Positions 11,823-62,113 of a DNA stretch of 64,000 nt are shown here, piece by piece. Origin of the DNA: Elusimicrobiota bacterium. GTDB taxonomy: Bacteria; Elusimicrobiota; Endomicrobiia; CG1-02-37-114; XYA2-FULL-39-19. How positions within the stretch are numbered: position 1 is the first letter of the stretch; each line of letters opens with the position of its first letter. The notes under the pieces are model-generated. The model was not told the DNA's origin. It saw only the letters and a list, made by a program, of their open reading frames with translations, and did not search any database. The stretch spans positions 9,047 through 73,046 of the forward strand of contig JAHIVV010000054.1 of assembly GCA_018816525.1 (NCBI GenBank), in the 5' to 3' direction. Position numbers and translations under genes: made by a program.

Positions 11823-12760
11823 AATCTAAACTATTTTTTGTTACAGGCGGATTAGGGTTTATCGGCAAACATTTTGTGCAACGCTGCCTGGATATGAGCC
11901 ATTTTGTAACTAATGTGGACATAATTAATTATGCGGCCGACCGTGTCGCAAATGAGGGGTTCAAAAAACACAGTAATTACCGGCACATTCAGGAAGATAT
12001 TGCTAATCTCAGCCATCTGCCTGAAAGTGATTTCCTGGTCAATTTTGCGGCCGAGTCGCATGTCGACAACTCTATTGCAAACAATCGCCAGTTCTGCCAT
12101 TCGAACATACTTGGTGTTCAGCGGCTTCTCGAGCTTACACGCGCCAAATCCGCATCAGGTGCGCCGCATTTCATCCAGATAAGTACCGATGAAGTTTATG
12201 GCGACATTGTAAACGGCAGGCATACCGAGTCGGATCCACTACGGCCGTCGAACCCTTACTCGGCTACCAAAGCCGCCGCTGATATGCTTGTCATTGGATG
12301 GTCCCGGACCTACTCGCTTCGCTATAACATCGTCCGTATGACCAACAATTATGGGCCAAACCAATACCCGGAGAAACTTATTCCCAAATCGGCATGGCGG
12401 ATGCGGCGTGGCTTGCCGGCAATGATGCATGGCGATGGCAGTTATATACGTTCTTGGCTCCACGTTGAAGATTCGATTGACGCCATTCTCACTATCTTTG
12501 AGAAAGGAGAACCTAATACTGTTTACAACGTGCATGGCAACTGTGAATTGCCGAACATCGAAGTTTTGCGGAAGATCGCAGCCATTTTTAAAGTTCCGGA
12601 AAAGGACGCCTACATCCAAATACCTAACCGGGTTGGCCAAGATGTTCGATACAGTCTTGACGACACGCGTCTACGTGCGCTCGGCTGGAAACCGGTACGG
12701 GATTTTGACGAGGAAATCAAAAAGATTGTCGAGGAAGACGAGTTCAAAAGATTTCTATAA
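11819..12760 (+). CDS. NDP-hexose 4,6-dehydratase (RmlB-like, short form)
   Basis: FFVTGGLGFIGKHF Rossmann; ISTDEVYGD and YSATKAA (YxxxK). First gene of a GC-richer block. Confidence 0.7.
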   Translation: MKSKLFFVTGGLGFIGKHFVQRCLDMSHFVTNVDIINYAADRVANEGFKKHSNYRHIQEDIANLSHLPESDFLVNFAAESHVDNSIANNRQFCHSNILGVQRLLELTRAKSASGAPHFIQISTDEVYGDIVNGRHTESDPLRPSNPYSATKAAADMLVIGWSRTYSLRYNIVRMTNNYGPNQYPEKLIPKSAWRMRRGLPAMMHGDGSYIRSWLHVEDSIDAILTIFEKGEPNTVYNVHGNCELPNIEVLRKIAAIFKVPEKDAYIQIPNRVGQDVRYSLDDTRLRALGWKPVRDFDEEIKKIVEEDEFKRFL

Positions 12761-12784
12761 TAACCTAAACGGGAGGTAACTTAT

Positions 12785-13210
12785 ATGAGTAAGAATGATG
12801 TTTCAGCTTGTCCAACAGGTCCCATAGTTTCAATGATTGCGCCCTTTGAAGATGGCCGGGGTTATATCCAGACGTTAGTAGACGGAGGAATACAGGCTAT
12901 CCAGGTCATCACCTCCAAAGCGAACACTGTCCGGGCTAACCACTACCATAAAGCAGATTCACACTTTATGTATGTAATAAAAGGCACAATGAAATATTTC
13001 CATCGCCCGGCAGGAGATAAGTCGGCCCCAAGTTGGTTATTGGTGAAGGCAGGCCAGATGGTCTTCACTCCGCCTTTAGTGGAACACGCAGTTGAATTCA
13101 CTGAAGACTCGGAATTTCTCAACATCACCGGAAAACCGCGGGACCAGGGTTCGTACGAAGATGACATAGTGCGAGTCGAACTCCATAAACTTTCGGTAAA
13201 AGGGGGCTGA
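12785..13210 (+). CDS. Cupin-fold NDP-4-keto-6-deoxyhexose isomerase/epimerase (FdtA/QdtA-like 3,4-ketoisomerase or RmlC-like)
   Basis: 141 aa small cupin (ANHYHKADSHFMYVIKGTMKYF), strong SD GGGAGG, positioned between a dehydratase and a C-methyltransferase. Confidence 0.5.
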   Translation: MSKNDVSACPTGPIVSMIAPFEDGRGYIQTLVDGGIQAIQVITSKANTVRANHYHKADSHFMYVIKGTMKYFHRPAGDKSAPSWLLVKAGQMVFTPPLVEHAVEFTEDSEFLNITGKPRDQGSYEDDIVRVELHKLSVKGG

Positions 13211-13214
13211 TTCA

Positions 13215-14459
13215 ATGACGCTCCATCATCATAAACGAACAAATTGCAGGCTATGCGGTTCGAAGGAACTTGAAAGTGTGTTGCACCTCAAACCTACGCC
13301 TCCGGCTAACTCGTTTGTATCAGCGGCGGAGAAAGACAAACCGCAGGAATTATATCCTTTAGACGTTTACCGCTGTGCCGACTGCGGCCACCTGCAACTG
13401 CTTGATATTGTTGACCCGAAAGTAATGTTCAGCCACTACGTGTACGTATCAAGTACCTCTCCGGTAATGGTCGGCTATCTCAGAGATCAATGCGCCGCTA
13501 TTGTGCGCCGGCTGAATCTCAAACAGGGAGATCTAGTGGTTGAGTTCGGCTCTAACGACGGTGCGTTACTGCGTTTCTTTAAAGAAGCCGGAATGCGGGT
13601 TTTAGGCGTGGACCCGGCAGGAAATGTTGCCCCGGATTCAGCTGAGATTGAAAATATTATCGATTTTTTCGGCGCCAAAGTGGGTAAACAAATTCGAGAA
13701 AAATATGGCCCGGCAAAGGCAATATGCGCATACAATGTTTGTGCTCACATCGATGACCTTCGCGGAGTTATAGATGGTGTCCGTTCGCTGCTAGCGCCTG
13801 ATGGCCAGTTTGTGTTTGAAGTTGGCTACCTGTTGGATGTTTATCGCAAGACTCTATTTGACACTATATATCACGAACACGTTGATTTTCACCACGTCGA
13901 ACCGTTGAAACGATTTTTTGCCGACAATGGGCTCAAATTACTGCATGCCGAGCGCTCCGATATTCAGGGAGGCGCGCTGGTAGGTTATGTAGGCAGTTCT
14001 ACACAACATGAAGATAACACAGTTGCCGAACTTATCACTGAGGAACATAAAGCGGGACTGCACCTTGCCGATACTTTTCACCGTTGGAGTGATATGATTA
14101 ACATCCGAGGCGAAGAACTAATGTTATTGCTGCGAGGGTTGAAAGCAAAAGGCAGGTCAATTGCTGCCTATGGTGCGACGGCTAAAGCAACAACAATGAT
14201 GTATAACTTCGGGATAGATGTCTCCATCCTTGACTATATTGTCGATGACAATCCGCTCAAGCAGGGAATGTTCACTCCCGGATTACATATACCGGTATAC
14301 TCTGCAAATGTTCTCTATCAAAAAAAACCGGATTATGTTCTTTTGCTCGCGTGGAACTTTGCTGAACCGATAGTAAAAAAACACAGGCTTTATGCCGGAA
14401 ACAAGAGCCGTTTCATCCTGCCGCTTCCTAACCTGACTATAATCGGGGGTGAGTCTTAA
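13215..14459 (+). CDS. NDP-sugar C-methyltransferase (TylC3/NovU-type; SAM-dependent with an N-terminal Zn-binding domain)
   Basis: N-terminal CRLCGS...CADCGH zinc motif. Central VVEFGSNDGALL SAM motif. C-terminal C-methyltransferase-type domain. 414 aa. Confidence 0.65.
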   Translation: MTLHHHKRTNCRLCGSKELESVLHLKPTPPANSFVSAAEKDKPQELYPLDVYRCADCGHLQLLDIVDPKVMFSHYVYVSSTSPVMVGYLRDQCAAIVRRLNLKQGDLVVEFGSNDGALLRFFKEAGMRVLGVDPAGNVAPDSAEIENIIDFFGAKVGKQIREKYGPAKAICAYNVCAHIDDLRGVIDGVRSLLAPDGQFVFEVGYLLDVYRKTLFDTIYHEHVDFHHVEPLKRFFADNGLKLLHAERSDIQGGALVGYVGSSTQHEDNTVAELITEEHKAGLHLADTFHRWSDMINIRGEELMLLLRGLKAKGRSIAAYGATAKATTMMYNFGIDVSILDYIVDDNPLKQGMFTPGLHIPVYSANVLYQKKPDYVLLLAWNFAEPIVKKHRLYAGNKSRFILPLPNLTIIGGES

Positions 14460-15412
14460 TGCAAATTGGGCTGATAGGGGCCGGGCGCTGGGGTAAACGA
14501 TACATCGAGACCCTTAATCGCATGCCCGATATCAATCTTGCCTATTTAGCGAGCAGAAACCCTGAGAGCGTTTCGCTTGTCCCTTCAACCTGCAAGGTAA
14601 CTCCGGACTGGCGTAATCTTTTAGAAAATACCGGCCTTGATGGCATCATTATAGCTACACCGCCGGAAACTCACCTTGAAATAGCGATAGAGTCAATCCA
14701 TGCCGGCATACCGGTTTTAATTGAAAAACCCATGACGATTTCTCTGCCGGCTGCTCAAAATCTAGTTAAAGAAGCGGCTGATTGCGGAATTTTAATAATG
14801 GTTGGGCATACTCACCTGTTCAGTGCTGCGTTTCGTGGACTAAAAATGAAGGGCCAGTCTCTTGGTAAATTGAAAAATATGCATTCATCAGGAGGCGCTT
14901 GGGGACCCTTTCGCCCTGACACTCCGCCGCTGTGGGATTGGGCACCCCATGATATATCAATGTCCATAGAGCTTTCCGGAAGTTTTCCATCGCACATTAG
15001 TGCTAAACGAACCGGATTTATTCAACAACCGCAGGGAACAGGGGAGTCCTTCAGAATCATACTGGATTTCGAATCTGGTGCTTGTTCTGAAATCAATATC
15101 AGTAACATCCAACAAAATAAGCAACGGCTGTTTAAAGCCACATACGAAGGCGGTTCCCTGATTTATGATGACCTTGCGGAAAATAAACTTGTCTTTCAAT
15201 TTTCTTCTAAATCAGCCGTAGAACCTGTTGCGATTGATCACTCTCTGCCGCTTACTAACCTTGTGGCTGATTTCTGCCGCGCTATCGGAGAAGGCCGACG
15301 ATATGATCAGAGTTTGCATCTAGGCCTGCAGGTAGTGGAAGTGTTAACCGAATGTCAAAAGTCCCTTAATGTTACCGAGAGTTACTATAATGCAAAATCA
15401 AATAGAGCCTAA
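14459..15412 (+). CDS. Gfo/Idh/MocA-family NAD(P)-dependent oxidoreductase (probable sugar ketoreductase)
   Basis: N-terminal MQIGLIGAGRWGKRYIETL Rossmann and EKP motif (LIEKPMT). Last gene of the GC-rich block. Confidence 0.7.
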   Translation: MQIGLIGAGRWGKRYIETLNRMPDINLAYLASRNPESVSLVPSTCKVTPDWRNLLENTGLDGIIIATPPETHLEIAIESIHAGIPVLIEKPMTISLPAAQNLVKEAADCGILIMVGHTHLFSAAFRGLKMKGQSLGKLKNMHSSGGAWGPFRPDTPPLWDWAPHDISMSIELSGSFPSHISAKRTGFIQQPQGTGESFRIILDFESGACSEINISNIQQNKQRLFKATYEGGSLIYDDLAENKLVFQFSSKSAVEPVAIDHSLPLTNLVADFCRAIGEGRRYDQSLHLGLQVVEVLTECQKSLNVTESYYNAKSNRA

Positions 15413-16307
15413 AGTTTGTGTAATAATTCCCAATAAAAATGGGGCCAAACATCTTTATTACTCACTCGATTCTTTGGCAAAAACAAATTATAAAAATTAC
15501 AACGTAATATTAGTAGACGACGGTTCTGCAGATGAATCTTTAATCTATGTTAAAGATAAATTTCCAGAAATTAAGATATTAGAAAATATTGGCAAAAAGG
15601 GTTTTGCCGGAGCTGTAAATACCGGTATAAAATACGCCTTAAGTCAAAATGCTCATTATGTAGCTGTTTTTAATACTGATATTAAAATATTGCCTGAATG
15701 GATAAATCTTGTTGTCGATTTATTTGATAAGTTAAGTACGGTTGGGTTGATCGGATATACAGCAATTCCTAAAGAAGAAGAAATTAGTTTTGTAAACTGG
15801 AAAAATATTGACTTTAAATATGAAGAAATAAAGGATTCAAAAGGCGTAGAAGGCTGTTTATACTTATGTCCGTCAGCTGTATTCAGGCATATTGGTTTTT
15901 TTGACGAAGATTATTTTATGTATGGTGAAGATAATGATTTATTTCATAGACTTTTAAAAGCAAATTATAAAATCATAAAAACCAATATTCCTGTATGGCA
16001 CTACGGCGAAGGCTCATCGATAAACAAAGGTTTTTTTGCTACGTGGCTCGCTTATAGAAACGCATTAAGATTTTCAATAAAGAATGAAAATATCATTGGT
16101 GTGTTTTTTAAGGTTCTCTCTCTATTAAATCAGGGATGTAACCCCTTCAGAAAAAGGAAGAAACATAATTCTGTTTACAAAAGAATGAGAAGATATAATC
16201 CAATATTAAACTTCTTGATTATCATTGGAAGCATCTTGTGGAATATTTACCATTTACCAATAACTATCAAACAACGAAATATATTTAATTCGAACTGTAA
16301 GGAGTAA
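15369..16307 (+). CDS. Glycosyltransferase family 2
   Basis: VCVIIPNKNGAKHL...VILVDDGSADES...DEDYFMYGEDND (DxD). An alternative ATG at 15390 (MQNQ...) would give a shorter overlap with the upstream gene. Confidence 0.7.
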   Translation: MLPRVTIMQNQIEPKVCVIIPNKNGAKHLYYSLDSLAKTNYKNYNVILVDDGSADESLIYVKDKFPEIKILENIGKKGFAGAVNTGIKYALSQNAHYVAVFNTDIKILPEWINLVVDLFDKLSTVGLIGYTAIPKEEEISFVNWKNIDFKYEEIKDSKGVEGCLYLCPSAVFRHIGFFDEDYFMYGEDNDLFHRLLKANYKIIKTNIPVWHYGEGSSINKGFFATWLAYRNALRFSIKNENIIGVFFKVLSLLNQGCNPFRKRKKHNSVYKRMRRYNPILNFLIIIGSILWNIYHLPITIKQRNIFNSNCKE

Positions 16308-34102: not shown

Positions 34103-35427
<1,325 letters not shown>

Positions 35428-35440
35428 AATAATCTAAAAA

Positions 35441-35470
35441 ACTGCCAGCTATAAACTGGCAGTTTTTTTT
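35441..35470 (+). terminator. Rho-independent terminator after ahcY
   Basis: CTGCCAG-CTATAAA-CTGGCAG hairpin followed by T8. Confidence 0.7.
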
Positions 35471-35471
35471 C

Positions 35472-35500
35472 TTGACAAACCGCCTTAATATTTATATAAT
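35472..35500 (+). promoter_or_regulatory. Consensus sigma-70 promoter (TTGACA-N17-TATAAT) for the giant surface-protein gene
   Basis: TTGACA at 35472-35477, exactly a 17-nt spacer, TATAAT at 35495-35500, ATG at 35512. Confidence 0.55.
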
Positions 35501-35511
35501 TTTAACGCTAA

Positions 35512-38500
35512 ATGAAAAAAATAATCTTCTTCCTTTTGGCCATTCTTGCAGTCAATCTTCTCTTACCTGCAATTTCTTTTTCTTCTGCAATTCAAACATC
35601 TACAGAAACAACAACCGGTGTCTGGAATTCAACTTACACTTGGTCCGGCGGTTTAATCCCTGGGCCCGATGATGAAGTAACTGTAAGTGAAGGGTTTTTA
35701 TTGTTAATAGATACTGCTGCTGAATGCAAAGCCATTTCTCTTACACTGGATCAATACGCAACTGTTGAATTCCATCCTTTTGGAGTAAATGCATCAACTC
35801 TTAATGTACGAGGGGATATCACTTTTGGCGATGGCGCTGCTATGACCATGAACGGTTCAAATGCAAATGACAGGATGCTATTAGACGCTAACGACTTAGT
35901 TTTAAACGGCGATGGCTCTTCCTTAACATCCCTGCTCAACACTACACAAACCCAAAATCTTACAATCAATGCCAGAGACATTAAATTAGGTGCTGATAAA
36001 TCAGCGCTTTTTAGAATCACAGCAAGCACAAAATCGATTATTAATTTGGCATGCCGTGATATATCGCTTGCCAATTGTGTTAATTACGGTAATTTTTTTG
36101 ATATAGAGATCAATGCGCCAGATACTACTCTTAATTTAGCTGCCGGACAAATAACTGTAGGGACTTTGAATGATCTTTACATTATGGTGAACTCACAGGC
36201 AAATAAGTGTTTAGCAAACATTTCTTTTGCAAAACTAACTACAAATTCTGAAGGAGTTTTTGATGCCAGGTGCTCTGTATTATCCAGCACGATGTCACTT
36301 TCTCTAAACGGTTCACTATCACCTGCCGCAGTTAGCAACAATGGTACTTTACGTTTAATCGGGACCAATCCAAGCGCAAACCCAAAACCCGATTCTGAAA
36401 ATACGAGAAGAAATATCTCTTTTACAGGTGTTTATGGTGACTCTTATATGCAATGCTATGGTTATACTGACTTTGAAAATGCTTCTATTACTCGTTTTGG
36501 TAAATTCAGAGCAGAAAATAAATATGGTATCTGCTTTTTCAATATAGACGGTGCGATAGATCAAAAAATTTTCCTTTATAACTGCGATATCTCTTCATCA
36601 ATTGATACTGGTATTTATCTTTCCGGGTGTACAAGGCTCAATAGGCAATGGTATGACCAGGGTATATTATCCTGCATAATAAGAGGAAACGGATATAACG
36701 GTATTTGGCTTGATTCAACACAAAAAAGCGAAATTAGAAATTGCAAGATTTATAATAACATTGGAGCAAATATCGGTTACGGAATTCATCTGACAAACAT
36801 ATCAAATGAAAACACAATCAAGAACAATGATGTTTATGCAAATAAAATTATAGGAATTTACCTTAATGGTTCTGATAAAAACCTTATTTCTAACAATCTT
36901 GTCCACGACCAACTGCCGGGTTACGGACAAGAGGGTATTTATCTTTATAACTCCAAAAAAAATATAATTGCCGGGAATAGCTGCTATAGCAACCCTGTTC
37001 ACGGAATTGCTCTAGAGAACGGTTCAAATCTTAACTACGTTGTAGGGAACAATTTCTCAAAAAATCTTGACGGAGGAATGAGAGTCCGTTACAATGCCAA
37101 CGGCAATATATTTATATCCAATGTGAGCTCAGAAAATGCCAGGACCGGTTTTACTTCTCATTCTTCAGTAGATACCTTTTGTGCAAATGAATTATTTCAA
37201 AATAATACAATTGGGGACATCTATATAGAAGGTGAAGAAAATATCGGTTATATTTCTCAACTCTGGATGAAAAATTGTTTATTCAGGAGTACTGTTACCT
37301 TCACGAATACACCGGAAAAACAGGAGTTTACTAAAGAAAATTCATGGGTTATAAGCCAAAAACATAACGGAACAAATGGGTTAACAAGAGTTTGGGGACA
37401 ATTCTCAATACCCCAATCTGCCCATTCCTGGCATACATCCGATCTCCTGAAATTTGACTATAGCGAAAAGTCATACACAGGAAAATCTCACGGCTGGAAC
37501 AAAACTATAAATAATTATGATACACCTATGCTGAGATACGACGATGGAGGTGCTGACGGAGCCGGCATGCCTCCCTTAGGGTCTAATGACATTACATCAA
37601 TTACGCCAAGTTCGACAACAAAAACAGAGCTTTGGATATTAACCTATGAGTCATCAATAAACCGCTGGACGGTTTGGGGTTCAAGTTCGGGGATGCAGAC
37701 AAGGGGCGGCTCTGAAGGAAATGGTTTTGCTAAACCTGACTCCGATTATATCAGTGATAACGGAGAAATAAGATTCAGAATCACTCACCACTACTCTCCT
37801 GTTTCGCCGGGTGAAGAATATACTTTTGTTATTTTAGCAGACTCAAATGACCAAAACACACAAAAAAAAGTAGAACTGTGTGATTTTTCTGATCCTAACT
37901 ATATTGGTGCAAGCTTTACTAATAAAACTGGTGCTACGGTTGAGTTTATTGGTTTATCTACTGCCCCAACTCTTGTCACCAGAAAACTGGCCGAAGACGT
38001 TCCTGATACAAGTTTCTATTACGGTTTGACTTTAGGCGGCATAATAAACAAAATAAAATACACCGATTTGTCATTCCTTGACGGAAAAGGTCTATTCTTA
38101 AATGCTAAACCAGAAAATAATACAGAAAATATCCGTATTGAAAATCTTCTTCCTGGCACAACTTATTCAACCTACATATCTGTTTTGAATGTAACCGACC
38201 ATTACCTTGATTCAGTTTATATTGAAACAACTTCTGTAACCGGAATCTACAACGTAAGGGCTGATGGTTCCACTTTATACTTTAGGGATTACACGAGGCC
38301 TTTCCTGCAGGATAAATTGAGCATTGGTTCAGCCGTTTACTGGGATCCAACTCTTGTATGGAGCGGATTATCAGGTTTTACTGATGATGGCATTGACCCC
38401 AATAACGCTGACCAATCCAGCGCAAGAGAGTTCCAGGTAAAATATATTGACCGCGGGCTGGGAGCTAACGGGAATGCCCCTACTACAGTTCAGGTTTGGA

Positions 38501-40719
38501 TCGATTTTAATGATAACGACACGTATGAAACTTCTGAAAGAATTGGAATGAAATTAAAAACCGGTGTTGGCAATGACAACAATTATACAAATGGCGAAAT
38601 TTTTTACTGTATTATTTCCTCTATCGCTTACACCGGAGACGGTATACTTTCTTTCAGGTTTTATGCAACAAACCCTAATAGCATGACCATTTCTACATAT
38701 TCTTACAGCCTCTATAGCGTAAACAACAATGTAATGAGCACTTATGAAGCTTCCGGTACAGGGATTTCGATGAGTACTTTCACTATTAAAGGAACACCGC
38801 CAAGGATTACGATTGTTACACCTTCAACCGAACAAACAGGCATTGTACCTATAGCTTTTAATTTAATTGATGATAACAACAGGCCTGATCCATTTAATAA
38901 ATGTTCTGTAACGGTTGAATATCGCGACCCTTCCTCAAACACGTGGAAACCGGCTACAATAGGCGTTGGGTCTGAACCTACTACGGATCTGACTGCTGTC
39001 GTTTCACCCGGTATGCTGCATACCTTTATATGGGATTCTTCAACTGATTTAGCAAATAAAGATGTTTCAACTGCAATAAGAATAACCCCTTCAGGAGGAG
39101 ATGGAACTGGTTCAGGAGCCACTACCGGTTCGTTCTTTGTAGATAACATAATCGTATCCAAGCTCATTTTTATATCTTCTGAACAAGAATTGCGCTCCGG
39201 AGCTACCTCACAAATAATTACAATTCAAGGCCAGGATTCAGCAAACAATAAAGATGTGGATGCCAATATGTCAATCAGTTTATTGAGTACATCTACAAAT
39301 TATGCTTTCGTAAGTTCAACTGCTAATGTAACTATTACCAGTGCAACTATGGTTTCAGGTGAAGCAACTTTCAGGTATTGTGATGAACAAAGGGGAAACC
39401 CGACAATTGTTGTTTCTTATCCCGGACTCCAATCAGCCAGCCAGAGTTGGTGGATAACCAAAAATGTAAGCGCCCCCGGCTCTGCCTTGTCTATTACTGT
39501 CACTGATAGTGTAGTAGGCTCCTCTCTGGTTCCAGTCAATGTTACTGTAACATTGAAAGATTTGGACGGCAATCCCGTTGCCAGCAAAGATGTTACTATT
39601 TCTGTATCGGGAACCGACAATTATATAACTCAACCAACTGACAAAACAAATTCAAATGGCCAGGCTTTTGCCTCATTCTGGTCAACAAAAGCTGAAAGAA
39701 AAACAATTACAGCAACAGATATTACTGATAATATCATGATTGTTTCCAGCGCATCAATTAACTTTACTCCTACAAATGTAAACGGCAGTATTTCAACAGT
39801 AAGCATATCCAGCCAGACAGCGATACTGGGCAGTACTGTTACAGTTTATGTAACCTTGCTTGATATATATAGTAATCCTGTTCCCAACAAGCTTGTAAAT
39901 GTAAGTATTCTTCCGAATATAGCAGGGGATTTGCTTACTCTCTCAACAAACTATACTGACAATGCAGGTTTTATCAGAGCTGCAACACTGATGTGTGTGA
40001 GTGCCGGGCAAAGAATAATAAGCGCGCAAGACCAGTCGGATGTTTTACCTTTGACGTCTTCTGTAACCGTAACATTTACTTCTTTAAATGCCATTGATTT
40101 ATCGTCTCCTACGATTGTATCAGTTACTCCTTCAAGCGCCAGCACGCTTACTTCGGGCTTTACTCAAATCATTATCATTGCCTCAGATACCTTATCAGGT
40201 TTAAATTTATCATCTTCCACTATTGCATTGCTTCAAAATGGCACAGCAGCCGCAGGAACATTGTCCATAAGCGGCTCTAATAGCCTGGTTTATACTATAA
40301 CCGGCGAGGTGCAAAATGGTAACTACTCAATAACTGCGACAATCTATGATAATGCAAATAATTATTCCACTTTCAATTCAAGTTTCACCGTAAACATTCA
40401 GAACCCCGAACAAGTGTTTAAAACTCAATCTTACACCTATCCCAACCCAAGCACTGATGGAAATGTAAGGGTTAACTACAGCCTCCTTAATAACGCGACT
40501 AAAGTCACTCTAAAAATTTATAACATTATCGGAGAACTTGTCAGACAGGAAACATTGGATACAACTGTAGGCTCAAATAAAACGTATGTATGGGACTCAA
40601 AAAACCAGGATGGGGAATTGGTAGGAACAGGTGTATATATAATTAAACTGCTTGCAGAAATGGATTCTTCAACCAAGTATACTACGACAAAAAAACAAAT
40701 AGTGATAAAACGTAAATGA
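35512..40719 (+). CDS. Giant secreted surface protein with a signal peptide, parallel beta-helix (PbH1/NosD-like) repeats, multiple Ig-like (Big) domains and a T9SS-type C-terminal sorting domain
   Basis: N-terminal MKKIIFFLLAILAVNLLLPAISFSSA. Repeated N-rich beta-helix rungs (IRNCKIYNN..., IKNNDVYAN..., ISNNLVHD..., IIAGNSCYSN...). Repeated about 90-aa Ig-like modules (ITVTDSVVGSSLVPVNVTVTLKDLDGNPVASKDVTISVSG...). C-terminal about 80 aa (YPNPSTDGNV...KIYNIIGELV...GTGVYIIKL) matches the Por/T9SS CTD pattern. Confidence 0.7.
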   Translation: MKKIIFFLLAILAVNLLLPAISFSSAIQTSTETTTGVWNSTYTWSGGLIPGPDDEVTVSEGFLLLIDTAAECKAISLTLDQYATVEFHPFGVNASTLNVRGDITFGDGAAMTMNGSNANDRMLLDANDLVLNGDGSSLTSLLNTTQTQNLTINARDIKLGADKSALFRITASTKSIINLACRDISLANCVNYGNFFDIEINAPDTTLNLAAGQITVGTLNDLYIMVNSQANKCLANISFAKLTTNSEGVFDARCSVLSSTMSLSLNGSLSPAAVSNNGTLRLIGTNPSANPKPDSENTRRNISFTGVYGDSYMQCYGYTDFENASITRFGKFRAENKYGICFFNIDGAIDQKIFLYNCDISSSIDTGIYLSGCTRLNRQWYDQGILSCIIRGNGYNGIWLDSTQKSEIRNCKIYNNIGANIGYGIHLTNISNENTIKNNDVYANKIIGIYLNGSDKNLISNNLVHDQLPGYGQEGIYLYNSKKNIIAGNSCYSNPVHGIALENGSNLNYVVGNNFSKNLDGGMRVRYNANGNIFISNVSSENARTGFTSHSSVDTFCANELFQNNTIGDIYIEGEENIGYISQLWMKNCLFRSTVTFTNTPEKQEFTKENSWVISQKHNGTNGLTRVWGQFSIPQSAHSWHTSDLLKFDYSEKSYTGKSHGWNKTINNYDTPMLRYDDGGADGAGMPPLGSNDITSITPSSTTKTELWILTYESSINRWTVWGSSSGMQTRGGSEGNGFAKPDSDYISDNGEIRFRITHHYSPVSPGEEYTFVILADSNDQNTQKKVELCDFSDPNYIGASFTNKTGATVEFIGLSTAPTLVTRKLAEDVPDTSFYYGLTLGGIINKIKYTDLSFLDGKGLFLNAKPENNTENIRIENLLPGTTYSTYISVLNVTDHYLDSVYIETTSVTGIYNVRADGSTLYFRDYTRPFLQDKLSIGSAVYWDPTLVWSGLSGFTDDGIDPNNADQSSAREFQVKYIDRGLGANGNAPTTVQVWIDFNDNDTYETSERIGMKLKTGVGNDNNYTNGEIFYCIISSIAYTGDGILSFRFYATNPNSMTISTYSYSLYSVNNNVMSTYEASGTGISMSTFTIKGTPPRITIVTPSTEQTGIVPIAFNLIDDNNRPDPFNKCSVTVEYRDPSSNTWKPATIGVGSEPTTDLTAVVSPGMLHTFIWDSSTDLANKDVSTAIRITPSGGDGTGSGATTGSFFVDNIIVSKLIFISSEQELRSGATSQIITIQGQDSANNKDVDANMSISLLSTSTNYAFVSSTANVTITSATMVSGEATFRYCDEQRGNPTIVVSYPGLQSASQSWWITKNVSAPGSALSITVTDSVVGSSLVPVNVTVTLKDLDGNPVASKDVTISVSGTDNYITQPTDKTNSNGQAFASFWSTKAERKTITATDITDNIMIVSSASINFTPTNVNGSISTVSISSQTAILGSTVTVYVTLLDIYSNPVPNKLVNVSILPNIAGDLLTLSTNYTDNAGFIRAATLMCVSAGQRIISAQDQSDVLPLTSSVTVTFTSLNAIDLSSPTIVSVTPSSASTLTSGFTQIIIIASDTLSGLNLSSSTIALLQNGTAAAGTLSISGSNSLVYTITGEVQNGNYSITATIYDNANNYSTFNSSFTVNIQNPEQVFKTQSYTYPNPSTDGNVRVNYSLLNNATKVTLKIYNIIGELVRQETLDTTVGSNKTYVWDSKNQDGELVGTGVYIIKLLAEMDSSTKYTTTKKQIVIKRK

Positions 40720-41711
40720 AAAAATTTATACTGACTATACTCTCTTTAACTATTTTTTCAATTCTTGCAGCTGATTCTTTTGTTGTCGCGGAATCACCAG
40801 GGACCAGTACGGCTGTCTTCCTTAAATTAATACCTGGTGCCAGGCCGGCAGGTATGGGAAATGCATTTACTGCCATCTCTGATGATTCAAATGCCATCTA
40901 TACGAACTCAAGCGGCCTTATCCAGATTAAATCAATAAATATTTCGGCAACTCATATCTTGTTATTTGAAGATATTACCCATACATCAGTCAACCTTGCT
41001 TATCCTTCAGGCGCTAACACTTTTGGTTTGGGCATCAGTTATCTTTCAACGGGTGAAATCGAAGCCAGGGATTCGACAGGCTTGCTACTTGCAACAAATA
41101 ACTCGGTAAGCAATTCGGTAATCTCAGTTGCTTATACCAGAAAAATAGTGGATAATTTTGGCGTGGGCCTGACAGCAAAAACAATATCACAGAAATACGG
41201 ACTGTATTCAGGCAACGGTATGGCAACAGACGTTTCCGGAATTTATAAGTTCAGAATAAGCGAAGGCTACGTATCAGCAGGATTAGCTTTACAAAACCTG
41301 GGTTCTCCAATCACAATTGCAGATGTAGGAAATAGCCTTCCTACAATTACCAGATTAGGTATTGCTTACATACCTTCAAGCCGCTTTAAGATTGATGTCG
41401 ATGCAGATAAAACATCCGACAGCGCAATGAAAATATATTCCGGAATCGAATACATTTATAACAATTCCTTTGTTTTAAGAGCCGGGCATAACCAGCTTAA
41501 TAAAATATCCGGTACTGAAGGCATTTGCCTTGGTATCGGAACCAGGACTAACCTCGAAAAAGAAGCTTTGTGGGAAGAAGGGACCGTAGAAGAATCAAAA
41601 GAAGAGGGTTCTGAATTTGATTTTGACTACGCTTTAACTTCAAACTCGGAAGATTTAGGCTACACTCACCGCATATCTGTAACCTATAAATTTGGTAACA
41701 AATTCCATTAA
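40716..41711 (+). CDS. Outer-membrane beta-barrel protein of the FadL/PorV (LptO)-like family
   Basis: Signal peptide. N-terminal hatch motif SPGTSTAVFLKLIPGARPAGMGNAFTAISDDSNAIYTNSSGL resembles FadL/PorV. Alternating-hydrophobic beta-strand pattern, C-terminal aromatic (KF). Start overlaps the stop of the giant cargo gene (ATGA). Confidence 0.45.
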   Translation: MKKFILTILSLTIFSILAADSFVVAESPGTSTAVFLKLIPGARPAGMGNAFTAISDDSNAIYTNSSGLIQIKSINISATHILLFEDITHTSVNLAYPSGANTFGLGISYLSTGEIEARDSTGLLLATNNSVSNSVISVAYTRKIVDNFGVGLTAKTISQKYGLYSGNGMATDVSGIYKFRISEGYVSAGLALQNLGSPITIADVGNSLPTITRLGIAYIPSSRFKIDVDADKTSDSAMKIYSGIEYIYNNSFVLRAGHNQLNKISGTEGICLGIGTRTNLEKEALWEEGTVEESKEEGSEFDFDYALTSNSEDLGYTHRISVTYKFGNKFH

Positions 41712-41775
41712 ATACTGCCTTAAATTGACACTACCAGCAAAAAATGATAAAATCACTGTCTAAACCAGGTTTTTT

Positions 41776-57223: not shown

Positions 57224-59653
57224 TTATCTCAAATAATTCAATCTTTCCTGAGCTATTTGGTTTTTTGGGTCTAATTCAAGAACTTTTTGAAATGCTGACC
57301 TGGCATTTTCTTTATCGTTTTTTTGCGAATAAGCCAAACCCAAATTTACCCAAGAAGGCAAGTTGGATGGGCTGATAGTAACAGCTTGCTTGTACTCATT
57401 TATGGCTTCATCAACTTTACCTAAAGTAAAAAATGCATTGGCCAGGTAAAAACGGGCTTTGTAACTGTTGGGGGAAATCTCAACCAGTTGCTTGCATAAC
57501 TTAAGAACTTCCGGCCAATTCTTCTCATTTATTTTCTGCTCAGCTGCTTTTACCAATCTGTCATATTCAAGAATCGGTTCCGATTTTATTCCTGCTTTTT
57601 GCGATGCCACTTCCAGGTTGTGCCTTGCCATCTGAAATTCGGGATTTATTTCTACTGCCCGGCGATAGGCTTCAGCGGCTTTTTTGTTGTCGTTTTTCTT
57701 CGTATAGGCAAAACCAAGATTATTCCAAAAATCTATATTGTTCGGAAAAAAGAAAACAGCCCTTTCAAGAAGCGCAATGGCCCTATCAGGGTCTTTGTCA
57801 ATATTTATCAGAAATATGTTTCCGAGCGCAAAATATCCTTCCTGTGAAATAGGGTTGATGTAAAGCGCCTGAGTGTAATTGTTTAAAGCTTTTTCCATGT
57901 CACCCATTTGTGCATAAACTGTCGCAAGGTTAAAATGTATTTCGTCATAACCGCAATTGGCCGATAAAGCGTTGTAATAAGCCCAAAGAGATTTATCCCG
58001 CTGGCCTAATCTCGCGTAACAATTAGCAAGCTCATACTCGCTGTTAACTTCTTTGTTATTGAAGTGAGCTTTTTCCAAATAAGGAATAGCTGCCGCGACA
58101 TCTCCTTTTTTTGACATCTTGAAACCTTGAAAATAATTTATTTCGCCGAGAAAAAAATTATACCATTTGAAAATAAGAAAAAAGAAAAAAACAATAAGGA
58201 CTGCAAAAATACCCTTCGAAACAGAATTCAATCTGTATTCCTTAATTTTCCTCGTATCATCCATGCCAACCAGTGTGCCCATATTCCACCAATAAAGGAA
58301 CGCCGGCACGCAAAACTGGGTGGACACATTCCCGAATATATTATCAAGAAACATACCTGCGGTTCCGCTCAAAATACCGATAAATATTAATCTTTTGCTT
58401 TCCAAAAATGTGTTTTTGTAAAGATATATTCCATAAGCAAAAAATGAAACTAAAAACCATAAATAAAACGCTACGCCCAGGGTACCTATCTGGGACCAGT
58501 ATTCCAGAATTTCATCGTGAGCATTATTTGCATGAGTCCTAAAACCGCGATAAAGGTCATTAAACAGACTTTTACCCTGGTAAAAAGGGTAGTATAATTC
58601 AAATAAACCCCAGCCTTTGCCTAAAATTGGGTCGTCTTTTACCATCAGCCAGGCGCAGGACCAAATCATAATCCTCTGATGCATAGGACCGTATGAAGTA
58701 TTAGCCACATTTTCTATCTCTGTAATTCTTGATATCGGCGTTGAGCCGCCCAGGCTTCTGGGCCAGGTAAGAAAAGTGACTATGATCACGATAGTGATCG
58801 CAATTATCCATTTCTTTTCGCGCGCAAAAATCGATTTGCTTTTTTCTTTTCTGTAGTCTTTCAGCAGGAACAAACCTATTACCGTAAAAGCCGTAAATAA
58901 ACCTACCCAGGATGACCTGGTCATTGTAGCTACGATGGAGCAAAAATATATTTCAAGCATTCCCAGAAAAAGTATTTTTTTTGCCGCGGAAATCTGGGAA
59001 AGATAAGTCATTAAAATAATGGGGAAAAGCATAACCAGGTAGGATGACATAAAGTTAGGGTTTCCAAACGTAGAAACGGGACGGCCGCCAAAAGGGTTAA
59101 GCGCCTTAGGCCAGACAGGCTCAATTTCCATGTATTGCAAAACACCGTAAAACGCGGCAACAAAACCTACGAAAAACAATGTGTTTATAATTGTGTTAAA
59201 AAACTTTGCGCGTTCCTGCCTTTCATACATGATAGGAATTAACATCGCAGGTATCCAATACGCCATAAGCAAATTAACAAGAGTAAAAATAAACTTTTTA
59301 AAACCTTCAGAAAAAATGCTTGAATAAAGATAGTTAATTCCAAAACCCGGAAGGTTTTTTCCGTCTTCAATTATTTGTTTTATCAGATAAGGCTGATTTG
59401 AAAAATAAGCATAGAGCCAGGTGAACACGGCAAAACCGGTAAAAACTACCAAGGGCAGCTCAATCGGGCTCCATGACCACTTGAAACTTTTTTTCATCAA
59501 AGCGTCAACCAAATACAAAATCCACAAAATTAATATTACGACATTTAATAAAAAAATCTGGAAAAAATAAGGATTCCTTGTGAGGTCAGTGAAGAAAATA
59601 ATAGGCGGGAATATAAGAAGGAATAGTATTATGTACCTGAAATATTTGTTCAT
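57224..59653 (-). CDS. Polytopic membrane protein with an O-antigen-ligase-like (Wzy_C) domain and C-terminal TPR repeats
   Basis: 809 aa. About 12 TM helices. TMTRSSWVGL Wzy_C-like motif. The C-terminal ~300 aa contain multiple 34-aa TPR units (WAYYNALSAN..., ALNNYTQALYINP..., AAEAYRRAVEINP...). Confidence 0.6.
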   Translation of the reverse strand: MNKYFRYIILFLLIFPPIIFFTDLTRNPYFFQIFLLNVVILILWILYLVDALMKKSFKWSWSPIELPLVVFTGFAVFTWLYAYFSNQPYLIKQIIEDGKNLPGFGINYLYSSIFSEGFKKFIFTLVNLLMAYWIPAMLIPIMYERQERAKFFNTIINTLFFVGFVAAFYGVLQYMEIEPVWPKALNPFGGRPVSTFGNPNFMSSYLVMLFPIILMTYLSQISAAKKILFLGMLEIYFCSIVATMTRSSWVGLFTAFTVIGLFLLKDYRKEKSKSIFAREKKWIIAITIVIIVTFLTWPRSLGGSTPISRITEIENVANTSYGPMHQRIMIWSCAWLMVKDDPILGKGWGLFELYYPFYQGKSLFNDLYRGFRTHANNAHDEILEYWSQIGTLGVAFYLWFLVSFFAYGIYLYKNTFLESKRLIFIGILSGTAGMFLDNIFGNVSTQFCVPAFLYWWNMGTLVGMDDTRKIKEYRLNSVSKGIFAVLIVFFFFLIFKWYNFFLGEINYFQGFKMSKKGDVAAAIPYLEKAHFNNKEVNSEYELANCYARLGQRDKSLWAYYNALSANCGYDEIHFNLATVYAQMGDMEKALNNYTQALYINPISQEGYFALGNIFLINIDKDPDRAIALLERAVFFFPNNIDFWNNLGFAYTKKNDNKKAAEAYRRAVEINPEFQMARHNLEVASQKAGIKSEPILEYDRLVKAAEQKINEKNWPEVLKLCKQLVEISPNSYKARFYLANAFFTLGKVDEAINEYKQAVTISPSNLPSWVNLGLAYSQKNDKENARSAFQKVLELDPKNQIAQERLNYLR

Positions 59654-59659
59654 TTCTCT

Positions 59660-62113
59660 CTACTTTTTCGGGGGAGACATAACTCGAAGCAAGTCCGGAT
59701 CTTGGGGATTAATTTCATGAATTCTCTGCCACATTTTCAAAGCTTCCTGAGGTTGGCCTCGTTTATTGTAAATTACTGCTAAATTTTTCAGAGCAGATAC
59801 ATTGTCTTTTCTAATTGTGGATGCTTTCAAATAATATTCTTCGGCCTTCTTTGCATCTCCAGTCATATATTTAAGGTTACCCAAATTAACATAGGTTTCT
59901 GCATATTCATAATTCCTTCTTTGGCCCCAATCTTCCCAGTAAAAACAATGGTAATTACCTTTATGAATTTCGCATTCAGGCGGCACGCTTTCTGCCGGCC
60001 TGCCAATTTGTTTGGAAACCCATTCTTTTTCATCGCTCCCTGGCTGCGTTAGGGATTCAGCCATGTACAAATGCCTCCAATAGGTTTCTTCAGCCTTCTT
60101 TAAATCTCCCATCTGGATATATACATATGCCAAACGGTAATAGTTTTGGGCGAAAATGGGGTCGATCTGGTGGTACATTTCAAATCTTTTTATTGATTCT
60201 TTCCATGCTTCCCTGGCCTTGTCCATTTGATTATTTGACCTGTAAGTTTCACCCAATTTCAAGTACAAAAGGCCTGCCTGATGGTGTGATTGGACGTAAT
60301 TTGGAGCCAGTGTCCAGCAATCCTGGTATTTGCTTATGGACCTTTCTACATCGATTCTTCCTTTATTGCCCAAGTTTATGCCTGACCAGGCCAAATCAGT
60401 TTCATGGTCACCCCATTCCGGATGATACTCGCGGTTGAGCATCCATCTGTCATTGAAAACATTGCCCATGAAATAGTGGGCCATAATAAAACCATAATTT
60501 TTTTGAGCAACAATGTTATAATTGCTCAACGCATCCGACCATTGCCCATTTTTTGAATGGAAAATGGCAATGTTATGATGCACGTCAGCAATAAAATACC
60601 CCCTGAAAACACCTTCAAAAGGGACTTTCACGCCAAAAATAGTTGCCCCTGTTATTCCTACTATAGAAAGTATTATTGCGATCGTCCCTGTAAGGTAATC
60701 GGTTATCAAGATTATTATGAACTGTATAACCCTGCGTGCAATTTTTGGTATAGGGTTGCGAAGGGGCAAAATTGGCTGGGATGCCTGCATAGGCAGCGGA
60801 TTATTTATAGTTAATGTGTTTATCAAACCTACGAGAAGCCACATAAAGATACCGGACGAAACAAATCTTAAAGAAACACACATCAGGTTATGCGATAACA
60901 TTCCTATAAATGCGGAAAGAAAACCAAGCATATAAAATGCTCTCGGGTCAGTTACTATTTTGGTTGCTTTGCCTTTTGCATTGGGCGGAGGTAAATCAAC
61001 TGCAGAAAATATCCTCAGATTTTTTAACCCGGAATTTATACACAAAACTATTATCCATAAGAAAATAGCAAAACCAACTATTCCTTCATCATACCAAACT
61101 TCCAGGTATTCGTTTTCCGGATGGTCTGATTCGGTATTATGTTTTGCTTCGATATAAAATATCTGCGGCCTGCGGAATGCGGGATAAGTCACATAAAATG
61201 TACCAATACCTGTACCTAATATCGGATTTGTATTAATCATTTCCCAGCAGGACATCCAGGTATAGACCCTGAATTTTACAGAATCAGTTCTTTTCATTAT
61301 CTGATCATATACGGCATAAGCGCAGATCAGCAAAACTAAAGAAACAATTATTGATACAATCTTTTTTATGTTATGTTTTTGCAGATGGGCAAAATGCAAT
61401 GCGTATAGAATGCAAAATGCAATAAATCCGGAAGTGAAGCCGATCCAGGCGCCTTTTGATGAAGTAAAAATTGCGTTGAATGCCGTCATCAAAAACAAGA
61501 TACCAAAAAACGGCTGCCGTGTTTTAAAAAACATTGCCAGGCATATAGGGCCTAAAACTACAAGAAAATCACCGTAAAAGTTAGGGTTTCCGAAAGTCGA
61601 GAATATTCTGGTACCGAATGCGCCTCTCCAAATAAACGGGTCCAGGCCTCTTTCAGACATGCCCTGAGGAAAATACCTGGTATCGAGAAACTGTATTATT
61701 CCATAAAAGGTTGCAACGAAACAGGCAAAAAACAGCCAACCCAATAATCTTTTTATTTTTTCTTCCGAGTTAAACTCTTTCATTATTATAAGAGCTATGC
61801 CGAAATAAATAACTTTACGGATTAGCTCCATGCCGCTTGCATATTGAAGAGGTGAGCGCAGATGTGAAATCGTATTGGAAAGCAACACGAGTAAAATGGG
61901 TATTATTACTACGAGGTTCTTTTTGAAGTAGTTTGTGTCATATTCTTCTATTAACTTTATGAGCCAGAGCATTAAAATTAACGCTCCGCCGATTTGGATC
62001 AAAGTAATTTTAATCTGGCAGGAATCATAAGTGCGCAGATAAAAAGCCAGGGAAACCGAGAAATAAAGGATGGGCAAAAAATGCTTGATTATTTTTTCAA
62101 AGGTTTTTGTCAT
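59660..62113 (-). CDS. Polytopic membrane protein with an O-antigen-ligase-like (Wzy_C) domain and C-terminal TPR repeats. A tandem paralog of the preceding gene.
   Basis: 817 aa. Same architecture as its neighbour. TSSKGAWIGF motif. TPRs (EEYYLKASTIRKDN..., ALKMWQRIHEINPQD). Confidence 0.6.
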   Translation of the reverse strand: MTKTFEKIIKHFLPILYFSVSLAFYLRTYDSCQIKITLIQIGGALILMLWLIKLIEEYDTNYFKKNLVVIIPILLVLLSNTISHLRSPLQYASGMELIRKVIYFGIALIIMKEFNSEEKIKRLLGWLFFACFVATFYGIIQFLDTRYFPQGMSERGLDPFIWRGAFGTRIFSTFGNPNFYGDFLVVLGPICLAMFFKTRQPFFGILFLMTAFNAIFTSSKGAWIGFTSGFIAFCILYALHFAHLQKHNIKKIVSIIVSLVLLICAYAVYDQIMKRTDSVKFRVYTWMSCWEMINTNPILGTGIGTFYVTYPAFRRPQIFYIEAKHNTESDHPENEYLEVWYDEGIVGFAIFLWIIVLCINSGLKNLRIFSAVDLPPPNAKGKATKIVTDPRAFYMLGFLSAFIGMLSHNLMCVSLRFVSSGIFMWLLVGLINTLTINNPLPMQASQPILPLRNPIPKIARRVIQFIIILITDYLTGTIAIILSIVGITGATIFGVKVPFEGVFRGYFIADVHHNIAIFHSKNGQWSDALSNYNIVAQKNYGFIMAHYFMGNVFNDRWMLNREYHPEWGDHETDLAWSGINLGNKGRIDVERSISKYQDCWTLAPNYVQSHHQAGLLYLKLGETYRSNNQMDKAREAWKESIKRFEMYHQIDPIFAQNYYRLAYVYIQMGDLKKAEETYWRHLYMAESLTQPGSDEKEWVSKQIGRPAESVPPECEIHKGNYHCFYWEDWGQRRNYEYAETYVNLGNLKYMTGDAKKAEEYYLKASTIRKDNVSALKNLAVIYNKRGQPQEALKMWQRIHEINPQDPDLLRVMSPPKK

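Follow-up and report, generated by a model that had tools for sequence, protein, structure and literature searches.

The stretch of DNA analysed here (the window: 64,000 nucleotides of contig JAHIVV010000054.1, from an Elusimicrobiota metagenome-assembled genome (MAG)) carries on its forward strand two overlapping open reading frames (ORFs), which form the unit described in this work. As summarised in Table 1, the first ORF encodes a large protein (the cargo), in which a passenger made of a beta-solenoid and Ig-like modules is followed by a C-terminal domain (CTD) in type IX secretion system (T9SS) style, and the second encodes an outer-membrane barrel of the PorV/PorQ family. Both proteins have exact public matches, encoded on a 75,343-bp contig and labelled Elusimicrobia bacterium, which NCBI names "right-handed parallel beta-helix repeat-containing protein" (the cargo, MBU0952222.1) and "PorV/PorQ family protein" (the barrel, MBU0952223.1). 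The component parts are of known kinds, and public annotation already gives the barrel its family; we found no published account of the generality of an operon joining a type A CTD protein to a private PorV-like barrel, or of its prevalence outside the Fibrobacteres-Chlorobi-Bacteroidetes (FCB) group. A first-pass annotation of this DNA had taken the CTD to confine the source to the FCB group, and this is refuted because the host is an Elusimicrobiota MAG, and Elusimicrobiota is a separate phylum outside that group; the module is also present in other non-FCB phyla. The window is syntenic with Elusimicrobia genomes from the Rifle aquifer.

Table 1. Features of the cargo-barrel unit, in window coordinates
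Feature	Position	Strand	Basis or remark
Bidirectional intrinsic terminator, 13-bp hairpin and T-run	35436..35468	none	ends ahcY; 5' boundary of the unit
Sigma-70-type promoter, TTGACA-N17-TATAAT	35472..35500	+	12/12 consensus; starts four bases past the hairpin
Cargo gene, 1735 amino acids	35512..40719	+	ORF and translation; MBU0952222.1
Predicted Sec signal peptide (MKKIIFFLLAILAVNLLLPAISFSSA)	35512..35589	+	inspection of translation; N-terminal helix 2-21 in AlphaFold model
Right-handed beta-solenoid, residues ~25-592	35584..37287	+	~59 strands, ~20 rungs, pLDDT 80-95
Conserved middle region, residues ~595-1095	37294..38796	+	dozens of invariant positions among orthologues
Beta-sandwich module, residues ~1098-1195	38803..39096	+	AlphaFold pLDDT 70-85, all-beta
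Two Big_1 (intimin/invasin-type) Ig-like repeats, residues 1334-1425 and 1438-1529	39511..40098	+	Pfam 1.4e-12
Weak Big_13-like Ig module, residues 1556-1627	40177..40392	+	Pfam E = 0.0087, below cutoff
Type A T9SS-style CTD, residues 1641-1735	40432..40716	+	TIGR04183, FlgD_ig
ATGA stop/start overlap	40716..40719	+	read from sequence; no Shine-Dalgarno (SD) site
PorV/PorQ-family outer-membrane barrel, 331 amino acids	40716..41711	+	MBU0952223.1
N-terminal plug (hatch), conserved GARPAGMGNAFTA...N motif	40803..40931	+	alignments A1, A2
Barrel wall, 14 long strands, residues 75-325	40938..41690	+	DSSP of model
Promoter-like site TTGACA-N17-TAAAAT with TG, before rmuC	41725..41753	+	11/12 match; 3' boundary of the unit

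The final 95 residues of the cargo carry, in order, the motifs YPNP (residues 1643-1646), GELV, W-x3-N-x2-G, GVYI (GVY at 1707-1709) and a basic C-terminal strand, KKQIVIKRK, and had been read in the first-pass annotation as a Por-secretion sorting domain of type A character. That assignment held when type A and type B models were compared. The type A model TIGR04183 scored 25.6 bits in the full cargo (cutoff 23) and 31.7 bits on the isolated last 110 amino acids, the match stopping 14 residues before the C terminus, and the type B model TIGR04131 gave no match to the cargo in the NCBIfam scan. With Pfam, FlgD_ig passed its cutoff (37 vs 27) and Por_Secre_tail (PF18962) fell just short of it (24.7 vs 27). 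The best NCBIfam matches of this CTD were the C termini of the PorZ and PorU models, and a profile of the cargo orthologues aligned residues 1573-1721 to the final 150 residues of PorU. We further aligned 54 CTDs from proteins encoded directly upstream of related barrels. The type A model recognised 48 of the 54 and TIGR04131, weakly, four; the C-terminal ~90 positions of the PorZ model (666-757) were matched by 45 (best 1.5e-20) and the C terminus of the PorU sortase model by 36. When compared with the PDB, the profile of these CTDs matched the solved CTDs of PorZ (5m11, 9e-15) and PorU (6za2, 2e-9) best and over their whole length, the CTDs of cleaved substrates coming far behind. The columns of the fold motifs (YPNP, G-x-Y and the C-terminal strand) are kept in 46-54 of the 54 sequences, and a near-C-terminal basic column (K1728 in the cargo) holds lysine in 48 and arginine in the other six; a near-invariant C-terminal lysine contacts PorV in every solved substrate complex (PMC10994853). 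Further, the W-x-x-x-N-x-x-G-x-x-V-A-S-G-V-Y stretch of these CTDs aligns with the extra hairpin described for the PorZ CTD (PMC11285876). On the strength of these profiles, we classify the cargo CTD, a putative beta-sandwich, as belonging to a PorZ/PorU-like (FlgD_ig-like) subtype of type A.

The barrel had been predicted to be FadL/PorV-like with an N-terminal hatch, and searches with PorV, PorP, PorQ and FadL models bear this out while narrowing it to the PorV/PorQ family. NF033709, the model of that family, matched residues 31-326 of 331 with 154.3 bits (cutoff 90), and the barrel lay below the equivalog cutoffs of PorV (NF033710, 83.4 vs 250) and PorQ (NF033711, 70.6 vs 220) and below that of PorV2 (NF052325, 39.9 vs 325); no PorP/SprF family matched it in NCBIfam or Pfam at E <= 0.01. 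A profile built from 22 barrel sequences matched Flavobacterium johnsoniae PorV over its full length in the PDB (2e-59), and FadL far less strongly (~4e-5). The AlphaFold model (pLDDT 84, pTM 0.80) consists of a helical N-terminal plug, with short helices at residues 34-70 ahead of the first strand, and 14 long strands, and its top Foldseek matches were PorV in two substrate-bound translocon structures (8gl6_F and 6h3i_F, TM 0.72), followed by FadL/TodX. Within the hatch, R43 and N64 are invariant, and A42, G48, A50 and D57 nearly so (alignments A1 and A2).

Two further features of the barrel were noted. The NPA motif of the hatch (residues 64-66, window 40905-40913) reads NSS here and NPS and NAS in the two closest orthologues; it is retained in more distant relatives, and its asparagine alone is invariant. 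An acidic insert (EEGTVEESKEEGSE) at residues 283-295 (window 41562-41600), modelled with low confidence, is confined to barrels partnered with this cargo family, i.e. to close orthologues; from its composition, a charge match with the very basic CTD tail KKQIVIKRK is possible.

The cargo has about ten orthologues (42-76% identity), and all of the labelled ones come from Elusimicrobia. The barrel gene comes directly after the cargo gene, either overlapping it by 4 nt or standing 4 nt away, in 5/5 orthologous loci (L002-L004, L091 and L092), and the pair lies in three flanking contexts: metK-ahcY/rmuC, metallophosphatase/ndk and trkA/polysaccharide deacetylase. To place the pair more widely, we used the barrel alignment to scan GTDB, with each species represented by a single genome, and analysed 80 loci of at least 484 relatives, covering +/-10 kb around related pairs, with a CTD profile hidden Markov model (HMM) seeded from four cargo orthologues. 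According to the labels of the MAG records, the loci come from Elusimicrobiota (22), Zixibacteria, Nitrospirota, Desantisbacteria, Firestonebacteria, Goldbacteria, Saganbacteria, FCPU426, Calditrichia, Krumholzibacteria, Latescibacteria, WOR-3 and Spirochaetia, with one locus from Bacteroidota. When these loci and the window were taken together, a CTD gene lay directly upstream of the barrel, on the same strand, for 54 of 84 barrels, compared with 25 of 706 non-adjacent genes (odds ratio 49, Fisher p = 2e-42), and we reject chance adjacency of cargo and barrel. The two genes overlap by 4 nt in 13 of the 54 pairs. Among the Elusimicrobiota loci, such a partner accompanies 20 of 23 barrels, and of the 25 CTD genes just 4 stand away from any barrel. 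The proposal that the barrel is dedicated to one CTD protein is strongly backed by this conserved synteny. The passengers of the partners are surface enzymes and adhesins of varied kinds, including subtilases, BNR-type glycosidases, propellers (Kelch and others), helices of pectate-lyase type and arrays of CarboxypepD_reg with Ig modules. Clustering of all locus proteins revealed no extra neighbour that recurs across phyla; conserved neighbours were seen only within the Krumholzibacteria/Latescibacteria group, plus a housekeeping dehydrogenase in Zixibacteria. Because the passengers are diverse and no other family recurs beside the pairs, the module, as far as gene content indicates, can be described as any passenger with a CTD, followed by a private barrel. 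None of the Elusimicrobiota partners is an orthologue of PorU or PorZ, the matches being confined to the CTD part of those models, and a partial PorZ-like body was found in one partner only (L023, an unlabelled bacterium).

The surveyed loci also contain variants of this layout. In L014, L017, L020, L022 and L024 (Zixibacteria), L055 (Bacteroidota) and L072 (Elusimicrobia), a single CTD gene precedes a tandem of two barrels of the PorV/PorQ family. Proteins of the PorV/PorQ family that are 640-700 amino acids long occur in L026, L048, L052, L056, L057, L074, L077 and L086 (Spirochaetia, FCPU426, Goldbacteria and one Elusimicrobia locus); because this is twice the usual length, they appear to carry an extra fused domain. 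In L007 (Endomicrobiales, 1-20580), a distant barrel homologue of 395 amino acids with a long charged C-terminal tail (P0022) is flanked by two proteins of more than 3000 amino acids, one with methyltransferase domains and the other with many F5/8 type C (discoidin) repeats. In L038 (3367-9773), an ORF of 1953 amino acids that matches no family lies 90 nt ahead of a 151-amino acid ORF that is nearly CTD only, and the barrel comes next; judging from this arrangement, a frameshift or an assembly error has probably broken a single giant cargo gene into these two ORFs. Large proteins without a CTD beside barrels (1519-2155 amino acids) were considered as hidden translocons and rejected: they matched no T9SS family, one being a glycosidase and one an adhesin. 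On the reverse strand of the window, two tandem proteins of ~810 amino acids (57224-59653 and 59660-62113) combine a Wzy_C (O-antigen-ligase) membrane domain with C-terminal TPRs, and a homologue in L016 (Elusimicrobia, 10887-13076) begins 1 nt after a CTD-barrel pair; this placement might suggest that CTD proteins are connected with a glycan-ligase step.

Starting from the observed domain identities, family assignments and conserved adjacency, we consider it fairly probable that the two proteins of the window are a cognate cargo and anchor (or carrier) pair that works like PorU-PorV and PorZ-PorQ, and the unit would then be a surface-display module of two translationally coupled genes, driven by a promoter of its own, in an Elusimicrobiota bacterium. 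Cognate PorV-like barrels have been proposed for specific substrates (PMC10202324). In such a module, both proteins would be exported by Sec and the barrel inserted in the outer membrane; the CTD would dock on the surface loops of the barrel, with its near-C-terminal lysine in contact, and the barrel would tether the passenger to the outside of the outer membrane, in the manner of PorV with PorU and PorQ with PorZ. By analogy with PorU and PorZ, whose CTDs are uncleaved and remain bound to PorV and PorQ (PMC10202324, PMC11285876), we infer binding of the CTD to the barrel, retention of the CTD, which probably stays attached rather than being cleaved off, and exposure of the passenger, whose solenoid/Ig stalk would bind or modify a polysaccharide at the cell surface. 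The ATGA overlap, which we read as translational coupling of cargo and barrel, would give roughly matched synthesis of both partners. For the passage of the folded passenger across the outer membrane, we weigh a T9SS of the classical kind encoded at another site in the genome, a divergent T9SS that has escaped recognition and a T9SS-independent route; our tentative first choice would be a divergent T9SS-like translocon encoded elsewhere, and a more tentative second a route that does not involve a T9SS.

The PorU-PorV and PorZ-PorQ pairs are the nearest known counterparts of this pair. Like PorU and PorV, whose genes are adjacent in Porphyromonas gingivalis (PGN_0022/0023), it places the gene of a CTD protein directly upstream of that of a PorV-family barrel, and the CTD is of the same subtype; unlike PorU, its passenger is a beta-helix/Ig protein and not a C25 sortase, the barrel stays below the PorV equivalog cutoff, and the host belongs to the Elusimicrobiota, which have no known T9SS. 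It resembles PorZ-PorQ in that these CTDs match the PorZ CTD best of all and in that PorQ is a PorV-like barrel anchoring one specific CTD protein. It differs from that pair in its barrel, which does not reach the PorQ cutoff, in a passenger without the beta-propellers of PorZ (the PorZ matches being limited to the C-terminal model positions), and in the overlap of the two genes, porZ and porQ not being known to be adjacent in P. gingivalis. NCBIfam also describes a second PorV-type barrel and putative type IX sorting protein, PorV2 (NF052325), and a CTD protein family of M6-like inactivated metalloproteases (NF052323); loci from Krumholzibacteria and Latescibacteria in our survey resemble these two models, unlike the window pair, with a barrel far below the PorV2 cutoff and a cargo unrelated to M6 peptidases. 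The 14-strand barrel with an N-terminal plug is shared with FadL/TodX, the second-best structural matches, and with the UPF0164 proteins of Treponema, a FadL-like family; unlike FadL/TodX, the window barrel is far closer to PorV in sequence, has NSS in place of NPA in the hatch, and has a CTD protein rather than a catabolic operon as its genomic partner. In Slam (type XI) secretion, a 14-strand barrel is encoded beside its surface protein and the cargo, a lipoprotein or a protein with an 8-strand C-terminal barrel, is recognised via a C-terminal beta domain; the layout is similar, and no sequence relationship was detected, with no test aimed at one. The first-pass annotation had chosen SprB-SprF as its comparison. 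One half of it stands, namely the dedicated adjacent barrel: in SprB-SprF and other pairs of type B CTD and PorP proteins, a large adhesin is likewise encoded next to a dedicated barrel needed for its display (PMC10202324). The other half gives way to PorU-PorV and PorZ-PorQ, whose CTDs are the closest and are retained, because the CTD is type A and the barrel belongs to the PorV/PorQ family; a type B CTD with a PorP barrel was rejected on the absence of both TIGR04131 and PorP/SprF matches.

Several points weigh against the cognate-pair reading. In Flavobacterium, over half of the surface to which the CTD binds is supplied by SprA, not PorV (PMC10994853), so that a PorV-like barrel on its own might be a weak binder, and the window barrel lacks the ~90-residue surface-loop insert of F. 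johnsoniae PorV. The CTD of Tannerella forsythia mirolase, which is cleaved, is also structurally closest to those of PorZ and PorU, and cleavage persisted when the PorZ hairpin was grafted into RgpB (PMC11285876); likeness to the PorZ and PorU CTDs alone decides neither cleavage nor retention. Further, the adjacency figures describe 80 loci that are the closest relatives of the window barrel and not a random sample of the family, and they depend on rough ORF calls and on a CTD HMM that had been iterated over these very loci.

It is also conceivable, though we think it unlikely, that the cargo is an ordinary T9SS substrate: a complete, perhaps divergent T9SS would be encoded elsewhere, the barrel would be a paralogous PorV-type shuttle that takes over this one cargo from an SprA-like translocon, and a PorU-like sortase would then remove the CTD and the passenger would be released or ligated to lipopolysaccharide. 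The CTD does score above the type A cutoff and retains the lysine that matters for function, and the nearest solved relative of the barrel is the shuttle PorV itself. CTD-barrel pairs also occur in FCB lineages reported to have a T9SS (for instance Zixibacteria, Calditrichia, Krumholzibacteria and one Bacteroidota locus), where the Krumholzibacteria pair resembles models that NCBIfam names PorV2 and "T9SS-dependent M6-like inactivated metalloprotease", and O-antigen-ligase-like Wzy_C+TPR genes lie in the window (57224-62113) and directly after the L016 pair. On the other hand, according to published surveys, T9SS genes are missing outside the FCB phyla and CTD proteins are found solely together with T9SS (PMC11285876), and we found no literature that connects Elusimicrobia with either T9SS or PorV. 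Scans of the window genes with Pfam and NCBIfam (in the upstream half, the 25 most-matched of 46 families) reported no T9SS core family, only housekeeping and polysaccharide-synthesis families. Searches by tblastn and phmmer with the Sov protein of P. gingivalis (PMC7323717) found no SprA/Sov homologue in the 1.36 Mb of the window and fetched loci (best E = 1.5), a result of low power that carries little weight because T9SS genes are scattered in genomes. Among the Elusimicrobiota partners, no PorU (C25) or full-length PorZ orthologue was found, and the near 1:1 pairing of CTD genes with barrels is unlike what a general shuttle would lead one to expect.

The same tight 1:1 coupling could instead point to a barrel that, alone or with the barrel assembly machinery (BAM) or a type II system, exports and anchors the CTD protein encoded next to it, needing neither SprA nor the PorKLMN motor, as a minimal or ancestral "type IX sorting" device comparable to Slam/T11SS. 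Consistent with this, the pairs are widespread in phyla said to be without T9SS (Elusimicrobiota, Nitrospirota, Desantisbacteria, Firestonebacteria, Goldbacteria and Saganbacteria), no other neighbour family recurs with them in non-FCB loci, and none of the fetched loci has a T9SS gene near a pair. A plugged 14-strand barrel of the FadL fold, however, has no known capacity for a folded beta-solenoid protein of 180 kDa, the phylum assignments rest on MAG record labels, and the module need not be autonomous because the same pair exists in T9SS-bearing lineages; for the window pair we regard this explanation as quite doubtful. To the broader proposal, that CTD-protein/PorV-like-barrel pairs are an autonomous display system without SprA or PorKLMN across these six phyla, we assign a low probability. 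If it were true, the carrier/anchor half of type IX secretion would be older and far more widespread than the secretion system, and the T9SS of Bacteroidota would have been built around it. We judge it very improbable that the barrel is an ordinary channel of the FadL type, serving hydrophobic compounds, whose gene just happens to lie beside that of a large secreted protein. Such a channel would account for the FadL-superfamily fold and hatch motif, for the Pfam UPF0164 cutoff that the barrel passes and for a weak Toluene_X match in one orthologue (Toluene_X had no Pfam match to the window barrel). It was rejected because profile, family cutoff and fold all favour PorV over FadL; the odds ratio for adjacency to CTD proteins also speaks against it, as do the ATGA coupling and the pairing itself, which persist through the whole identity range of the cargo orthologues and all three genomic contexts.

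The cognate cargo-anchor pair that we favour would matter beyond this locus. The literature confines T9SS, the CTD signal and PorV-type carriers to Bacteroidota and a few FCB relatives, and the window and the 80 loci tie a type A CTD on diverse passengers to a private PorV/PorQ-family barrel in several non-FCB phyla. If these phyla hold an unrecognised T9SS, the distribution of the system is redrawn; if the pair works without one, it would amount to a minimal device for surface anchoring or export, from which the T9SS attachment complex could plausibly have evolved. Both outcomes would alter the current view. A CTD gene directly upstream of a PorV-like barrel could serve as an annotation rule for uncultured phyla, marking a surface protein and its anchor.

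A strong terminator, a consensus promoter, the ATGA overlap and the independence of the two-gene unit had all been proposed in the first-pass annotation, and each was confirmed. The upstream neighbour, ahcY, ends at 35427, and the RNA of the hairpin that follows it folds at -16.9 kcal/mol (z = -5.4), with 0/200 shuffles equally stable. The promoter next to the hairpin is the sole perfect match to its consensus across the 64-kb window, where 0.01 would be expected by chance. In three orthologous loci (L003, L004 and L092), TTGACA-N17 is followed by TAAAAT, TAAACT or TATAAA at the same position, and because the -35/N17/-10 pair is co-located in these diverged loci, the promoter is probably real. 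The distance from the -10 box to the cargo ATG is 11 nt in the window and 9, 11 and 22 nt in the three orthologous loci, and no SD was found in the sequence upstream of either the cargo or the barrel start. From the 11-nt spacing and the missing SD we predict that the mRNA of the cargo, a 5.2-kb gene for a secreted protein, is near-leaderless and begins 4-6 nt upstream of the ATG at 35512. We note that a promoter abutting a start codon without an SD is kept in four genomes (the window, L003, L004 and L092). The SD-like usage previously ascribed to the locus is wrong for both genes, because both starts lack an SD and a core SD (GGAG, GAGG or AGGA within 20 nt upstream of the start) is rare among window genes (13/55); the source genome appears to use SD sites sparingly. 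At the 3' end, a scan of the window sequence found no terminator behind the barrel, and the second promoter-like site, before rmuC (Pfam RmuC), sets off the unit on that side.

The passenger was examined in an AlphaFold model of cargo residues 1-1200, calculated from an alignment with nine orthologues. Its N terminus is Sec-like by inspection, in agreement with the signal peptide predicted earlier. The solenoid that follows was detected by Pfam as Beta_helix (8e-23) and NosD, and in the model it extends over roughly double the Pfam-detected part, so that the 8-10 rungs first estimated become ~20. Its top Foldseek matches were the AlgG epimerase, phage tailspikes and PL6 lyases (13-16% identity), and the profile of the cargo orthologues matched AlgG weakly at residues 428-561. 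No AlgG-type DPHD motif was found in the cargo by eye, the nearest string being NPVHG at 494-498, and the solenoid reached no enzyme family cutoff (AlgG, PL6 or tailspike type). From profiles and model, it can be assigned to the carbohydrate-binding/modifying (CASH) class of beta-helices, with the catalytic motif not established. The middle region of ~500 residues (595-1095) is modelled with a pLDDT below 50 and has no match in Pfam, NCBIfam or the PDB; given its conservation, it may be a conserved domain of unfamiliar fold. The claim of at least four tandem Ig-like modules is sustained for two, the clear Big_1 repeats, which were also seen in an internal repeat search; beyond these, there are only one weak Big_13-like module and one beta-sandwich. 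The orthologue profile also matched the intimin-like adhesin FdeC (4e9l, 1e-11) over the Ig modules.

Two observations concern the surroundings of the pair. In the orthologous locus L091 (18696-22853), a GldA/F/G-like ABC set (ABC_tran, ABC2_membrane, ABC_transp_aux and DUF4340) lies 3.5 kb downstream of the cargo-barrel pair, and no such set is found near the pair in the window. Further, the GC content at 12001-16000 of the window is 0.41-0.48, within a polysaccharide-synthesis cluster (1-28500) that otherwise has 0.31-0.35, and the genes in this segment have strong GGAGG sites, unlike their neighbours; by composition, the segment is probably a horizontally acquired insert.

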